Notes: a model not told the origin generated them from the letters alone. Shown: positions 6,527 to 39,798, counted from the first letter of the stretch. The stretch: 39,881 bases of DNA from an uncultured Saprospiraceae bacterium (GCA_964595615.1 CAZQTE010000004.1:1-39881); one strand, 5' to 3'. A program made the numbers and translations.

Positions 6527-6539
6527 TTTGAAAAAATTT

Positions 6540-6581
6540 TAGACTTTAGATATTGGACCTTAGATATTAGACTTTAGACAA
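6540..6581. repeat. Heptamer array TAGAYNT x6
   Basis: Units tagactt, tagatat, tggacct, tagatat, tagactt, tagacaa in strict 7-nt register. The array overlaps the HIT stop codon. Confidence 0.85.
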
Positions 6582-6969
6582 ACTTGGCAGAGATAGCTAC
6601 TGCTAATTTTTGCATTTCATCCTGAGCTATTTCCAATGGTTTAGATTTCACACTCATTTGACTTTCTGTTTGAAAAGGAATGAGGTGGACATGTGCGTGC
6701 GGAACTTCTGTTCCAACCACCAAGACCCCTACTCTTTTGCACTCAACAACAGACTCAATAGCTTTTGCTACTCGCTTAGAAAAAACGCTTAATCCAGAAA
6801 GAACTTCATCTTCCAAATCAAAGATATAATCTGTTTCCTGTTTAGGCACACACAATGTATGCCCTTTAGCTAATGGACGAATATCTAAAAATGCGAAATA
6901 GTCCTCTGTTTCTGCTATTTTGTAGCAAGGAATATCGCCATTGATAATTTTAGTGAAGATGCTTGCCAT
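6574..6969 (-). CDS. HIT-family (HINT-like) nucleotide hydrolase
   Basis: 131 aa with the histidine triad HAHVHLIPF. Confidence 0.9.
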   Translation of the reverse strand: MASIFTKIINGDIPCYKIAETEDYFAFLDIRPLAKGHTLCVPKQETDYIFDLEDEVLSGLSVFSKRVAKAIESVVECKRVGVLVVGTEVPHAHVHLIPFQTESQMSVKSKPLEIAQDEMQKLAVAISAKFV

Positions 6970-6972
6970 AGT

Positions 6973-7449
6973 TTAGATGATTTCGATTTTTACGATTTCA
7001 AATTGCATCGTACCATTTGGCGTTTTCACTTCTGCAATCTCTCCCACTTTCTTTCCTAATAGTCCAGTCCCCATAGGTGAGTTGACTGAAATCTTTTTCA
7101 ATTTCAAATCTGCCTCTGCTTCACTCACTAAAGTGTAAGTCATTTCGCGTTTTGCTCTGGTGTTCTTAATCGTAACACTTGACAATACACGAACTTCGCT
7201 ATTATCTAATTGAGATGCATCCAATACACGAGCTCTAGCAAAATGCTTCTCTAAATCATTAATTTTCGCTTCTAAGTGACCTTGTGCATTCTTTGCGGCG
7301 TCATACTCTGCATTCTCTGATAAATCTCCTTTATCTCTAGCTTCGGCGATAGCAGCAGCAGCCTCTGCACGACCTTTAGTCTTTAAGTGTTCTAATTCGT
7401 TCTTTAATTTTTCATAACCAGCTGGGGTCATGTAGGAATATTGTGACAT
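6973..7449 (-). CDS. greA: Transcription elongation factor GreA
   Basis: 158 aa. Coiled-coil N-terminus with GDLSENAEYDAAK. C-terminal FKBP-like VNSPMGTGLLGKKVGE. Confidence 0.95.
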   Translation of the reverse strand: MSQYSYMTPAGYEKLKNELEHLKTKGRAEAAAAIAEARDKGDLSENAEYDAAKNAQGHLEAKINDLEKHFARARVLDASQLDNSEVRVLSSVTIKNTRAKREMTYTLVSEAEADLKLKKISVNSPMGTGLLGKKVGEIAEVKTPNGTMQFEIVKIEII

Positions 7450-13154: not shown

Positions 13155-13193
13155 AGCTCCGAGTTTTAAAAAATTTCTAGTTATATTTTTAGA

Positions 13194-13259
13194 GATGTTA
13201 GATTTTAGATGTTAGACTTCAATTTAGTAATTATAGCCTAACATCTAAAATCTAAAATC
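13194..13259. repeat. Inverted heptamer arrays forming a 22-bp stem hairpin
   Basis: Arms 13194-13215 gatgttagattttagatgttag and 13238-13259 ctaacatctaaaatctaaaatc pair at 21/22 positions. It lies between the TBDT-like stop and the 1348-aa start. Confidence 0.85.
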
Positions 13260-13276
13260 TTATCAAGGTGTCCTTC

Positions 13277-22355: not shown

Positions 22356-22513
22356 TTAGACTTTGGACGAAAGATTTTAGATATTAGATTACTGAACAGT
22401 AATATTAATGTAATGCGTATTTCTTTGATTATCAATGTTTTTAAAAGTCGAAAGATTGATTTTTCGCTTGAATAGTCTAACATCTAAAGTCTAATATCTT
22501 TTGTCCAAAGTCC
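22356..22513. mobile_element. MITE-like 158-bp element with imperfect terminal inverted repeats and 10-bp flanking direct repeats
   Basis: Left end gactttggacgaaagat and the reverse complement of the right end gactttggacaaaagat match at 16/17 positions. aatcctattt occurs at 22346-22355 and again at 22514-22523. Confidence 0.6.
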
Positions 22514-22534
22514 AATCCTATTTATAAGTTGAAC

Positions 22535-24963: not shown

Positions 24964-25097
24964 ATTTATGTGGATAAATTTGACAGAGAGATTTTTTTGA
25001 TAGTTTTCTCTTAAAAATCGTTGCATGGTCTGCATCACGGAACTATTTTTAAGAGGAAAATAGCGGAAAAACATCCTGTCAAAATGTCCAGATAAAT
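24964..25097. repeat. 134-nt imperfect palindrome in the divergent promoter region
   Basis: Arms about 24964-25022 and 25041-25097. Matched blocks are atttat, tgga, tttgacag and ctcttaaaaat. Confidence 0.65.
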
Positions 25098-25218
25098 AGT
25101 GTTACGTACTTATATTGTTCTAAACGCACACATATTACTCTATATCTGCCAATATTTTAGATTAATACCTTACAGTAAAACCTATTATTATTTTTTAAAT
25201 ATTTGACAAATAAATTTA

Positions 25219-31266: not shown

Positions 31267-31309
31267 AGATATTAGATGTTAGACTTTCTTTGTCTAACAT
31301 CTAATATCT
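31267..31309. terminator. Perfect 18-bp hairpin made of TAGAYNT heptamers; bidirectional terminator candidate between convergent genes
   Basis: Stem agatattagatgttagac (31267-31284) / gtctaacatctaatatct (31292-31309) with loop tttcttt. Heptamer register continues to about 31326. Confidence 0.75.
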
Positions 31310-31331
31310 AAAGTCTAATATCTTTCAGAAC

Positions 31332-32171: not shown

Positions 32172-32233
32172 TATATTATTTTTTTGTTACAGTAAATAAC
32201 TGTTTTTCGGTTTTGGAATATGTTCTATGGAAT

Positions 32234-32268
32234 AAGATTTTAGACAAAAGATATTAGATATTAGACTT
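32234..32268. repeat. Heptamer array TAGAYNT-type x5
   Basis: Units aagattt, tagacaa, aagatat, tagatat, tagactt in strict register. Confidence 0.85.
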
Positions 32269-32470
32269 TCATTTCTTAGCTATTACCATTTTTATCTAAA
32301 ACTGAAGCGTCTGTATAATCTACAAATCGCGCACAAAGGTACGATTAAACGGATAAAGTCAAACTTCAAGTATGTTTTTAAGAAAAAAGCTGTCGTTTTT
32401 CTCCTATTAATAAAAAATACCATGCGAAATCCTTGCCAGCTAAAACTATTGTCTTTTCTAAGTCAAAGGC

Positions 32471-33403: not shown

Positions 33404-33451
33404 GAGACATTAGACTTATAAAACATATAGTCTAATATCTTAGACGGAGTC
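33404..33451. repeat. TAGAC-type heptamer/hairpin patch upstream of the His-rich lipoprotein gene
   Basis: Sequence gagacat tagactt ataaaac atatagt ctaatat cttagac. Includes the palindrome attagac...gtctaat. Confidence 0.6.
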
Positions 33452-36459: not shown

Positions 36460-37665
36460 ATGAAAAGTTTCAAACTCATCTTATCCTTCGCGTTCTTAGC
36501 ATTACTCGTTAGCTGTTCCAAAAATGAACGGGGCGTTGCACTTGAAGACGCAAGTTCTCCTGGTTTCTTTGATAGTGATAGCAGCAGCGGCAGCAGCCCA
36601 AGTGGCAGTAGCGGTAGTGCAGCAGAGGGCAGCAATAGTAATAATTCGGGATTGATTACAGCAGGCGAATGGAATGATTTAGAAAATTGGACTTATTGGA
36701 TAGACTCTTTACTCAATGGCGAAGAATACGCGTCTATGCCTGAGGTCTGGGGTATGTATCCAAAAAGTAGAGTATCTGTTCTTGTAGAACATAATTTTGG
36801 TCCTGCAATAGATATTGAGGTCGAGTTGCGAAAGAATGGAACAATGGTATGGAAAAATCGCACGGATAATAAGGGAAAAGCAGAGTTATGGATTGATTTA
36901 TTCGATTCTGGAATTGCAACAGACCTTAGCGATTATTCTCTTTACGTCGATGGCTCTTTTTATACTAGTAACTTAGTTCTATTTGAAGACGGTGTAAACC
37001 ATGTTCAATTGTTCTTCTTTCCAAACAATAACCTAAGCAAAGTTGACTTGGCATTCATCGTCGATGCAACTGGTTCTATGGGCGATGAGATTGATTTCTT
37101 AAAGAGTGATTTAAAAGATGTTATACAACGTGTCGAAAATGACAACTCTAGTCTTGACATCTCCACAGGAACGGTTTTCTACCGAGATGAAGGCGACGAA
37201 TATCTCGTCAAACATTCTCCCTTTACAGATAATATCGATAACACAATTGATTTCATTGGCAATCAGAACGCAAGCGGTGGCGGAGACTTCCCAGAAGCCG
37301 TGCATACTGCCCTAGATGAAGCGATTAATACGCTAAATTGGTCGGAAGAGGCACGAACGCGTATTGCATTTTTACTCTTAGATGCGCCACCTCATAAGAG
37401 AGAAGAAGTTATAAGCAGTTTGAACAGTTCAATCGTCAAAGCTGCTCAGCAAGGGATTAAATTAGTCCCTATAACAGCCAGTGGCGTTAATAAACAAACA
37501 GAATTTTTAATGCGCTTTTTCTCTATATCAACCAATAGCACTTACGTCTTTATCACCAATGATAGTGGTATTGGGAATAATCATATTGAGGCGAGTGTTG
37601 GAGAGTATGAAGTAGAATTTTTGAATGATTTAATGGTAAGATTGATTGCGGAGTATACAGATTAA
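36460..37665 (+). CDS. von Willebrand factor A domain lipoprotein
   Basis: 401 aa. Lipobox LLVSCS and a Ser/Gly-rich linker. MIDAS-type motif DLAFIVDATGSMGDEI. GGGDFPEAVHTAL and LLLDAPPH. Confidence 0.8.
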   Translation: MKSFKLILSFAFLALLVSCSKNERGVALEDASSPGFFDSDSSSGSSPSGSSGSAAEGSNSNNSGLITAGEWNDLENWTYWIDSLLNGEEYASMPEVWGMYPKSRVSVLVEHNFGPAIDIEVELRKNGTMVWKNRTDNKGKAELWIDLFDSGIATDLSDYSLYVDGSFYTSNLVLFEDGVNHVQLFFFPNNNLSKVDLAFIVDATGSMGDEIDFLKSDLKDVIQRVENDNSSLDISTGTVFYRDEGDEYLVKHSPFTDNIDNTIDFIGNQNASGGGDFPEAVHTALDEAINTLNWSEEARTRIAFLLLDAPPHKREEVISSLNSSIVKAAQQGIKLVPITASGVNKQTEFLMRFFSISTNSTYVFITNDSGIGNNHIEASVGEYEVEFLNDLMVRLIAEYTD

Positions 37666-37702
37666 TAGAGCAGTTTTTGATAGTCGGTCAAAATAGTGAA
37701 TG

Positions 37703-38010
37703 CTCACGTGGTGACTCCAAGTCGAATGCCGTCAACTTAGTGGAAGCGGCTTGTTTTTTTTAGACCCAGTCGGGCAAGCGAGGATTAACGGGATTACAGG
37801 ATTTCCGCCTTGAAGTGTTCCAGTTTTGACTAATACCTGCTCTGACGTGTTCCTATTTTGTACAAGTCAGAACAGGAACAAGTCAAAATTGGTACTATTC
37901 AAAATAGTAATCCTGTCATCCTGTTAATCCTCGCTTGCCCGACTGGGTCTAAGAATCCAAACAATGTGTTTCCTAAGTTGACGACATTCGACTCAAAGTC
38001 ACCTCGTGAG
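37703..38010. repeat. 308-nt imperfect foldback (144/145-nt arms, 19-nt centre); MITE-like or structured RNA/DNA element
   Basis: The left arm 37703-37846 pairs with the right arm 37866-38010. The terminal 38 nt match 33/38. The internal 29-nt core tagacccagtcgggcaagcgaggattaac (37761-37789) is perfectly complementary to 37923-37951. Confidence 0.85.
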
Positions 38011-38069
38011 TAAAAGTTATGCATCAGTCGTTTTCACTTATTACCCAGTTTTGTTTTGATGCTGTATAA

Positions 38070-38113
38070 CAAAAAAGACCTGACAGGATAGATTTCTTGT
38101 CAGGTCTTTTTTC
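38070..38113. terminator. Bidirectional intrinsic terminator between convergent genes
   Basis: 13-bp stem agacctgacagga / tcttgtcaggtct, flanked by A6 on the 5' side and T6 on the 3' side. Confidence 0.85.
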
Positions 38114-38130: not shown

Positions 38131-39798
38131 TCACCCCACGCCAAACGGACTAAATACAAACCAAAGTAGCAATACTAAAATCACTAATACAACTGTTAAT
38201 ACAACATCCCTCGTCCATGTAAAAGGTGTTGCTTTTGCCCCTCTCTGGAAAGTAACTAATTCTAAAGATGCCTCTGGTTGCGGAGTCGTCATTTTGCTCA
38301 CTATCATCAACACCGCAGCACAGAAAAGAAATAAAAATAAGGCAAAGTGCAAGAAGTTAATACTTAAGAAATAAGCCAAAGGTCCACCTTCTGAAATGAT
38401 AATGCTCCCTGAATTTGACATAAACTCCATGACTAATCTGAATATTCCAACTGCAAATCCTGCCCACAATGTAACAATTGCACCTTTCGCATTTATCCAT
38501 TTGTAGAATAACCCTAACAAAAAGACAGCAGCAATCGGCGGCGAAATGTAGGCTTGAACACTTTGTAAATAATGGAAAATTCCGCCCCCCATCAAAGCAT
38601 TCATAAATGGAATCCAGCCCAAACTAACGACAACTAGAATAATCGTCGCTATTCGCCCAAAACGTACCAAGTCTTTCTCTGACGCATTAGGTTTATATTT
38701 TTGATAAAAATCAATCGTCAATAAGGTCGAACTAGAATTAAAAGCAGAAGACAAAGAACTCATCAATGCCGCCAATAATCCCGCTATCGCTAATCCCTTT
38801 AAACCAGCAGGTAAAAATTCCGTTATCAAAGTCGGCAAAGCTTGGTCGGCATTATCCATTGAGTAAGAAATCATTCCTTTTTGCATTAAAGCATAAGCAA
38901 TTACTCCTGGGATGAAAAATAAGAAAACAGGTAGCAATTTTAAATAACCTGCAAATAAAGCTCCTCTTCGAGCATTACTTACATCTTTGGCTGATAGTAC
39001 GCGCTGCACAATATATTGGTCGGTACACCAGTACCAAACACCCAAAATCGGCGCTCCAAAAAGCATTCCCGTCCACGGATATTCGGTATCTTCCATTGGT
39101 CGCCATAAATTAAAAAATCGGTCAACAGGAGGATTACCTTCTGTCTGTGCTGCTAATGAAATAGTATTTATCATCTCGTCCCAACCGCCCAATTGATACA
39201 ATCCAAAAATCGAAATAACCGCAGTTCCCAATAGCAAAATAAAGGCTTGTACCATATCGGTATAAATCACCGCTTTTAGTCCACCCAATACAGTATAGAA
39301 TCCTGTCGCAATCACCGTAATAATCGCCCCCGTCCAAAATGGAATCCCTAAAACCTCAAACACCAATGCGCCAGCGAAAATGATAAGCGAAATTTTTGTG
39401 ATGATATAAGCCAAAACAGAAACGACAGACAAGTAATTTCGACAAGCCGCAGAATAGCGTTTCTCTAAAAACTCTGGCATCGTATAAACTCCCGTTCGTA
39501 AATAGAAAGGTACAAATACCCAACCTAATAATATTAATACTAAAGAAGCTAATATCTCAAAATTAGCCATTGGCATATTCGCTCGTGCGCCTGCTCCCGA
39601 CACTCCCAAAATAATCTCTGAACCAATATTGGAAGCGAAAAGGGAGGCACCAATGACCAACCAACCTTGATCTTTTCCCGCTAAAAAGTAATCGATGGAT
39701 GAAAAACTGCCGTCTTCCTTTTTTTCAGAAGCCCATTTGGCTATCCAGAGGATTATTCCGAAATAAAGGGCAATAATTGAGTAATCTATAATCGTCAT
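38131..39798 (-). CDS. Sodium:solute symporter (SSF/SGLT family)
   Basis: 555 aa and polytopic. The N-terminal YFLAGK..GW.VIGASLFASNIGSE signature is typical of SSF transporters. Confidence 0.85.
   Translation of the reverse strand: MTIIDYSIIALYFGIILWIAKWASEKKEDGSFSSIDYFLAGKDQGWLVIGASLFASNIGSEIILGVSGAGARANMPMANFEILASLVLILLGWVFVPFYLRTGVYTMPEFLEKRYSAACRNYLSVVSVLAYIITKISLIIFAGALVFEVLGIPFWTGAIITVIATGFYTVLGGLKAVIYTDMVQAFILLLGTAVISIFGLYQLGGWDEMINTISLAAQTEGNPPVDRFFNLWRPMEDTEYPWTGMLFGAPILGVWYWCTDQYIVQRVLSAKDVSNARRGALFAGYLKLLPVFLFFIPGVIAYALMQKGMISYSMDNADQALPTLITEFLPAGLKGLAIAGLLAALMSSLSSAFNSSSTLLTIDFYQKYKPNASEKDLVRFGRIATIILVVVSLGWIPFMNALMGGGIFHYLQSVQAYISPPIAAVFLLGLFYKWINAKGAIVTLWAGFAVGIFRLVMEFMSNSGSIIISEGGPLAYFLSINFLHFALFLFLFCAAVLMIVSKMTTPQPEASLELVTFQRGAKATPFTWTRDVVLTVVLVILVLLLWFVFSPFGVG

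Follow-up and report, generated by a model that had tools for sequence, protein, structure and literature searches.

A 308-nt foldback between two convergent genes of a Saprospiraceae bacterium is very probably a MITE nested in a second small element

What kind of sequence is a 308-nt foldback that occupies positions 37703-38010 of a 39,881-nt stretch of DNA from an uncultured Saprospiraceae bacterium (GCA_964595615.1, CAZQTE010000004.1:1-39881; this whole stretch is what we call the window)? A preliminary description of the locus had offered three answers: a foldback MITE, a structured RNA, either non-coding or part of the 3' untranslated region of the upstream gene, and an invertible 133-bp segment bracketed by two protein-binding or recombination sites. 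The foldback is located in the 466-nt spacer between two convergent genes, which encode a 401-aa VWA-domain protein (36460-37665, plus strand; Pfam VWA_4 and VWA) upstream and a 555-aa sodium:solute symporter (38131-39798, minus strand; Pfam SSF, E = 3e-88) downstream. Genes for a deaminase, a YbjQ-like protein and Ig-like surface proteins are found in the neighborhood, and the gene content of the locus, with type IX secretion tails and DUF6089, indicates Bacteroidota. A cyanobacterial origin, which the heptamer repeats had brought to mind, was rejected on these grounds, the hosts of the family described below being Saprospiraceae.

In a gapped alignment, the full arms of the foldback pair at 120 of 151 columns. 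The repeat search returned two pairs of arms. The outer arms (37703-37740 and 37973-38010) are 38 nt each and 87% complementary, and re-measuring gave the same 33 pairs out of 38 that had been counted before. The ungapped inner arms (37757-37850 and 37862-37955) comprise 94 nt, are 82% complementary and lie 11 nt apart, and the 11 nt between them (37851-37861) form the unpaired loop at the center of the foldback, as indicated by both the repeat search and the fold. On the left arm, a weakly paired spacer (37741-37759, from the arm alignment) separates the outer end from a core, TTAGACCCAGTCGGGCAAGCGAGGATTAAC, whose left (37760-37789, plus strand) and right (37923-37952, minus strand) copies were delimited by exact match and arm alignment. 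The two copies of the core are perfectly complementary, as had been stated, over 30 nt instead of the 29 nt given previously. Folded as single-stranded DNA, the foldback reaches -109 kcal/mol (z = -20), a value beaten by no shuffle.

Long palindromes can be suspected of being assembly artefacts, a possibility that the preliminary description had raised. This is excluded because an independent JGI contig (L001, metagenome 3300038671) carries an identical foldback: it differs from the window at 16 positions out of 9974 nt, none of which falls within the foldback. Arms, fold and independent assembly thus agree that the foldback is present. A Logan contig with an identical VWA gene (L002, SRR12112858) has its last base at the position corresponding to window 37748, inside the left arm, just past the conserved 38-nt end and ahead of the core. 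Such an end would fit breakage of the assembly graph by other copies of the family in SRR12112858, and low coverage is also possible.

Orthologues of the VWA protein, 90% and 79% identical, served as anchors in the comparison of the locus with its relatives, and the empty orthologous site that had been proposed as a check was found in three of them (L003, L004 and L005). In L003 and L004, which have a VWA protein 90% identical to that of the window, only about 20 nt (TAGTTTTAGCGCTGTGTAAT) separate the stop codon from the same terminator as in the window, the hairpin itself coming about 25 nt after the stop codon. This terminator is a bidirectional hairpin with 18-nt arms, 94% complementary, at 38071-38112. 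It lies outside the element, as the preliminary description had recognized in placing it at 38070-38113, and the relatives match window 38061-38112 with 96% identity over 52 nt; a simple terminator scan made no call on it. About 380 nt of the window are missing from L003 and L004 between the VWA stop codon and the terminator. In L005, with a VWA protein 79% identical and the same VWA-symporter synteny, the spacer is 80 nt long as compared with 466 nt in the window, and the terminator is a different one. Since the orthologous loci are without the element, the foldback is a lineage-specific insertion upstream of a terminator that already existed. In L003 and L004 the gene that follows the terminator is not the symporter gene, and synteny with the window breaks exactly at the terminator.

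Mobile DNA is expected to occur in several copies, and on this point the outcome depended on the part of the foldback that was used as the query. The exact 29-mer core had no match in 185,579 species genomes (596 Gb) and none in 241 M metagenome records, a result that misleadingly implied a unique sequence; the family was recovered by outer-arm patterns alone. The pattern AGTCGAATGYCGTCAACTTAG matched three lake metagenome contigs (L009-L011), and the degenerate end pattern TCAYRNGGTGACTNNRAGTCGAATG matched eight loci in three Saprospiraceae MAGs (CALDUB01, CAYGRM01 and JBGCCY01, the last being SGMAG-95). The search for further copies that had been suggested previously therefore failed with the core and succeeded with the termini. 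Ends of the type of the left 38-nt terminal inverted repeat (TIR) of the window are thus present in three Saprospiraceae MAGs and three metagenome contigs, in addition to the window itself.

The end matches were paired into elements with the use of BLAST and a profile HMM of the 38-nt ends. Twenty ends from 12 elements align over 38 nt, and full ends score 37-50 bits. In the window, the left TIR (37703-37740, plus strand, CTCACGTGGTGACTCCAAGTCGAATGCCGTCAACTTAG) scores 45 bits (E = 8e-13) and the right TIR (37973-38010, minus strand) 50 bits (E = 2e-14); both had also been detected by the repeat search. The ends begin with YTCAC, and the consensus of the inner ends of the family is YTCACRAGGTGACTYNRAGTCGAATGYCGTCAACTTA. 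The preliminary description had treated these outer 38 nt as degenerate flank and the perfect core as the specifically recognized site; across the 12 related elements it is the outer 38 nt that the copies conserve.

Sizes in the family range from 34 to 319 nt. Besides the 308-nt element of the window, we found elements of 319 nt (L014 6937-7255), 242 nt (L012 3437-3678), 218 nt (L013 497-714), 207 nt (L010 3251-3457) and 177 nt (L016 7333-7509, L017 1377-1553 and L019 4903-5079). The remaining members are a deletion derivative of about 80 nt (L009), a 34-nt mini-palindrome made of only the terminal 13-14 nt of each end (L011) and solo ends in L015 and L018. SGMAG-95 carries three 177-nt copies that are 86-89% identical and lie at different loci, one of them inverted, a sign of recent spread. 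In this MAG there are four loci on three contigs, and the elements of CALDUB01 are likewise distributed over three contigs; the 39.9-kb window contains a single copy of the family. A second empty site was observed for the 207-nt element of L010 (also present in L026), which is absent from L020, L022 and L025, the loci of an 85%-identical relative. There the corresponding spacer measures 207 nt as compared with 416 nt, and the junction is too diverged for a single TA to be read. The right end of the L014 element (7203-7255) contains a 14-nt insertion, CCTTACGGACACCT, and a GTGTCCGTA / TACGGACAC motif borders the interior of that element on both sides (6975-6990 and 7190-7205), which suggests a yet smaller repeat nested within the MITE.

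The dinucleotide TA stands just outside 15 of the 20 ends (background 0.076, P = 2e-13), and the remaining five ends are one substitution away from TA. Instead of a duplication, this TA may represent the terminal base pair of the repeat itself.

The boundaries of the insertion were supplied by a second small element, in which the foldback sits; no nesting had been suggested before. The similarity among the window, L012 and L014, and on the left also L018, extends beyond the 38-nt ends, with GGTAATGGGTCAAAACGGTGAATA on the left and TAAAAGNGATGCATCRGTCGTTTTCACCCATTACC on the right. In the window, the left end of this outer element (37679-37702, plus strand, GATAGTCGGTCAAAATAGTGAATG) is a decayed form of GGTAATGGGTCAAAACGGTGAATA, as found by alignment with L012, L014 and L018 and by BLAST; its last two bases are TG, where the other copies have TA. 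The right end (38011-38045, plus strand, TAAAAGTTATGCATCAGTCGTTTTCACTTATTACC, from alignment with L012 and L014) runs from the flanking TA to the outer inverted repeat CGTTTTCACTTATTACC, both included. Over their outermost 17 nt, the two outer ends form an inverted repeat, GGTAATGGGTSAAAACG. The composite of foldback and outer element thus spans 37679-38045, that is 367 nt.

Directly outside the composite lie two copies of an 8-bp target-site duplication, CAGTTTTT (37671-37678) on the left and CAGTTTTG (38046-38053) on the right, which match at seven of eight positions. The composites of L012 and L014, which belong to one MAG, are flanked by perfect 8-bp duplications (GATTATTT and TTCATTAA, respectively, 8/8 in each case), and the relative L004 has a single TAGTTTTA at the position of the duplication. 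Since the duplications bracket 37679-38045, the inserted unit is 367 nt long, which matches the size of the sequence missing in L003 and L004. The bounds 37703-38010 that had been given for the element accordingly hold for the foldback and not for the unit that was inserted. An earlier candidate for the duplication, GTTTT(T)GAT, was dropped when the alignment with L012 and L014 set the outer boundary, which gave CAGTTTTK. The window copy shows signs of decay: about five mismatches in 20 positions of the outer left end, one base of the duplication, and the change of the left TA to TG.

The window, L012 and L014 also have inner-end variants in common, a GACTCAAAGTC-type left end with GACTC(A/C)AAGTC and the right end GACTTTGAGTC. 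These shared variants point to what would be a single nesting event, after which the composite spread. The interiors of the composites, however, are unalignable despite ends of a single apparent origin, and a single nesting event would need an extra assumption, either turnover of the interior or the existence of old subfamilies.

We conclude that the foldback is very probably a non-autonomous DNA transposon (MITE) that resides inside a second small element and was moved with it, as a composite, into the spacer downstream of the VWA gene. The first of the three answers proposed originally is upheld by the multi-copy family, the target-site duplications and the empty orthologous site. In the mechanism that we propose, the recognized parts would be the two 38-nt TIRs (37703-37740 and 37973-38010): a transposase encoded elsewhere, presumably a DDE enzyme acting in trans, would bind them and then transfer the MITE by cut-and-paste. 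The TA flanks suggest an enzyme of the IS630/Tc1-mariner type for the inner element. The MITE would have inserted at a TA inside a tiny outer element, roughly 57 nt long and bounded by GGTAATGGGTSAAAACG-type ends, for which we predict the form GGTAATGGGTCAAAACGGTGAA-TA-AAAG...CACCCATTACC when the MITE is taken out. The composite would then have moved as one unit and generated 8-bp target duplications, and the enzyme acting on the outer ends may belong to a family that duplicates 8 bp. One composite would have inserted downstream of the VWA gene, in the spacer sequence ahead of the existing terminator, where it would now be decaying. Its present effect is probably that the 3' untranslated region of the VWA gene has become longer and structured, and little else.

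Both the foldback (308 nt) and the composite (367 nt) are shorter than 500 bp and carry no transposase gene. The preliminary description had reported neither ORFs nor a transposase or recombinase nearby. Small ORFs do exist within the element, the longest being 51 and 41 aa; they are without homologues, the 41-aa ORF having no match in a word-indexed protein search and the 51-aa ORF none among 1.84 billion representatives. The second part of the statement stands for the 15 window ORFs that were scanned, a set from which the four largest ORFs and those of about 60-150 aa were left out: no transposase or recombinase domain was detected in them. We looked for the partner enzyme also at the other loci. 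The fetched loci, 8-kb pieces of MAGs, contained no transposase or autonomous element with these ends, and a Pfam survey, considered for the best 25 of 92 families, revealed no transposase among 64 ORFs of the family loci. Next to the solo ends of L015 and L018, the adjoining ORFs are MarR, YceI, DUF3575 or domain-less, and none is a transposase. Neither the 177-nt copy nor the window composite had a BLAST match among the PLSDB plasmids, and viral contigs gave no match for the core 18-mer, the outer 21-mer or the end of the outer element. Three viral contigs that matched a 19-nt degenerate end pattern were rejected as chance hits, given that they matched the pattern only and in GC-rich sequence.

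A reading that is compatible with the MITE concerns its interior, which might be a functional module in which the core and the mirrored GGAT motifs are bound by a transposase-accessory or host protein; the patchy conservation would then reflect selection, with GGAT repeats at helical spacing. We consider this reading improbable, though less so than the alternatives to the MITE discussed below. Three GGAT motifs start at 37782, 37791 and 37799 of the window, with spacings of 9 and 8 nt (array 37782-37802, plus strand), and are mirrored by three ATCC motifs starting at 37910, 37918 and 37927 (array 37910-37930, plus strand); both arrays were found by motif scan, and the left one overlaps the inner end of the core. 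Each of the three composites (window, L012 and L014) has three to four GGAT motifs per arm, 8-10 nt apart, mirrored as ATCC. When 194 kb, i.e. the window plus the fetched loci, were scanned for arrays of at least three GGAT/ATCC at 7-12-nt spacing, five were found, all of them in the centers of these three composites, whereas permuted control motifs gave 0-3 arrays anywhere. Additional support comes from the 10-mer CGAGGATTAA, which is present in the window core and in the centers of the 177-nt copies, and from the length of the perfect run in the core.

When the alignment columns were shuffled, the mean longest run was 16.7, and a perfect run of at least 30 had, given the arm identity, P = 0.013. 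The 30-nt core is therefore modestly unlikely to arise by chance; it is only moderately unusual and not striking. The absence of exact 29-mer matches from the genome and metagenome collections described above speaks against a conserved module, as does the fact that the centers of the other members cannot be aligned with that of the window. The other copies have no counterpart of the core except the 10-nt CGAGGATTAA / GGAT motif, and L013 is devoid of any GGAT. Slippage alone can make short tandem repeats in MITEs, and function is not required. Because the centers of the members are unalignable with that of the window, the core does not define the family; neither the long hairpin nor the 30-nt perfect run is a family-defining site, both being traits of the palindromic interior of this particular copy.

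The GGAT arrays of the composites may be binding sites or slippage-prone short repeats. A more specific version, to which we give slightly less credit still, is that the composites keep a module within their otherwise unalignable centers, consisting of mirrored GGAT motifs at a spacing of one helical turn with the core as its outer edge, and serving a dedicated DNA-binding protein. If true, this would describe a MITE subfamily with internal periodic binding sites, in which the sequence turns over while the architecture stays, and the nesting, with its two sets of ends, would allow a single small element to be carried by two different transposases.

We see little chance that the foldback is instead a structured RNA, produced either as a separate transcript of about 300 nt or as part of the VWA mRNA at its 3' end, and selected for stability, processing or antisense function. 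The foldback with its flanks folds as RNA to -231 kcal/mol (z = -19.8, beaten by no shuffle), but a good RNA fold is expected of any DNA palindrome. VWA transcripts reading past the stop codon would presumably have to cross the element to reach the only terminator-like hairpin; the sequence is, however, absent from the orthologous loci. No Rfam family matched at the gathering threshold, and the best sub-threshold score, 43.5 bits as compared with a threshold of 113, was obtained with a generic model of long-hairpin microRNA precursors. In addition, some copies of the family lie upstream and others downstream of genes, and among the three near-identical copies one is inverted. The earlier proposal of a non-coding RNA or VWA 3' untranslated region therefore receives no support from Rfam.

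It is even less likely that the family consists of REP or REPIN elements moved on single-stranded hairpins by a RAYT, an IS200/IS605-like tyrosine transposase. The 34-nt mini-palindrome of L011, which retains only the terminal 13-14 nt, is REP-like, and every member of the family is a hairpin. The family nevertheless has target-site duplications (of 8 bp, and TA), and to our knowledge transposition of the IS200/IS605 type makes none. The 38-nt end is not self-palindromic, and the ends begin with YTCAC and not with the GTAG or CGTC tags of the REP superfamilies (PMC3733652).

An invertible switch, in which the 30-bp cores would be recombinase sites that flip 37790-37922, can practically be dismissed, since it has as its sole support the perfect 30-bp inverted repeats 133 bp apart, whereas the segment between them is about 80% palindromic and would change little on inversion, a flipped promoter would drive nothing between convergent 3' ends, a sigma-70-type scan detected no promoter-like site in the segment, no recombinase domain was found in the set of window ORFs scanned as defined above, both independent assemblies have the same orientation, and the cores are not conserved across the family.

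Returning to the MITE, the element meets the defining features listed for prokaryotic MITEs in a review (PMC10969869), with the exception of a cognate IS. Like other prokaryotic MITEs (PMC10969869; Delihas 2011, PMC3184786), it is shorter than 500 bp, non-coding and multi-copy, has TIRs and flanking direct repeats, resides in an intergenic region of the kind, often AT-rich, that such elements target, and is predicted to give stable-hairpin transcripts. It differs from them in that its TIR is 38 nt long (the review gives roughly 4-30 nt), in that the whole element is a foldback, and in its nesting within another small element, which would supply the active ends. It resembles MITEs derived from IS630/Tc1-mariner in the TA that flanks 15 of the 20 inner ends and in a series of sizes with internal-deletion derivatives, as is typical of cut-and-paste families; however, the 8-bp duplication left by the window copy is no signature of IS630, and neither an IS630-family transposase nor a full-length IS with these ends was present in the fetched loci.

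The closest published parallel is BrickBuilt of Porphyromonas gingivalis (PMC4596501), a Bacteroidota MITE that is always intergenic and has conserved end units and a variable, repetitive interior. BrickBuilt contains a minisatellite of 23-nt direct tandem repeats, and its inverted ends are small, whereas the element described here has a palindromic interior with an 8-10-nt GGAT periodicity and long ends; it is by these descriptions that the two are set apart. REPINs and the REP-RAYT system (PMC3116915, PMC3733652) resemble the family as short, hairpin-forming, multi-copy intergenic repeats that occur as inverted doublets, and differ from it in that the family has target duplications, is without the GTAG/CGTC tag, has ends that are not self-palindromic, and was seen with no RAYT.

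In the literature searched we found no description of this MITE family and nothing relevant on MITEs in Saprospiraceae. The MITE family is undescribed, its hosts belong to a bacterial family that has been little studied, and it has two less common traits: a MITE within a MITE that travels as a single unit, and an interior with GGAT periodicity. In practical terms, a conspicuous 308-nt palindrome is explained as mobile DNA and should not be annotated as an RNA gene, an inverton or an assembly error. The end consensus sequences, YTCACRAGGTGACTYNRAGTCGAATGYCGTCAACTTA for the inner and GGTAATGGGTSAAAACG for the outer element, can be used for masking and tracking in Saprospiraceae MAGs, where such elements are likely to break short-read assemblies. 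The scientific value is modest and lies in a clean example of a MITE that became nested in another and then moved as a unit.

Several other repeats were observed in the window. An ORF on the minus strand (1086-2174) encodes a Rep3_C domain (plasmid initiator, WH2; E = 2e-10), and its 3' end overlaps 8.4 perfect GTTCATA heptamers (1042-1100). A unit consisting of a hairpin and heptamers, 73% similar, recurs at 50-119 and 987-1056 (within regions 50-140 and 987-1056). The ORF and the heptamers look like an initiator with iterons, yet carotenoid genes adjoin them. A perfect 26-nt inverted repeat with a 45-nt spacer, AAGTATCACGGTCGTTCCACGCCGTG (2277-2302 and 2348-2373), lies in the intergenic region that separates the Rep-like ORF from the lycopene cyclase gene. 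Heptamer-based repeats of the TTTAGAC, AGATATT and TCTAATA types recur in intergenic spacers of the window (6531-6582, 13193-13264, 22358-22521, 31267-31325, 32227-32280 and 33414-33441) and often form hairpins, such as 13193-13224 with 13229-13260 (88% complementary). Comparison revealed no sequence relation between these heptamer families and the foldback, as had been noted before.

Finally, a stretch of about 95 nt at window 25013-25105 (AAAATCGTTRCRTGGTCTGCATCAC...GGAACTATTTTAAGAGGAAAATAGCGGAAAAA...CAAAATGTCYAGATAAATA) is about 90% identical to L018 3291-3423. In the window it is located upstream of the gene for a 1680-aa surface protein, and in L018, which comes from a Saprospiraceae MAG, upstream of a MarR gene. 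The L018 copy contains two extra inserts, one of 22 nt and one of 15 nt; the latter gives rise to ATCCTCGCTTGCCCG, a sequence that the foldback core also contains. This stretch may represent a further family of repeats, or else it may have a regulatory role.
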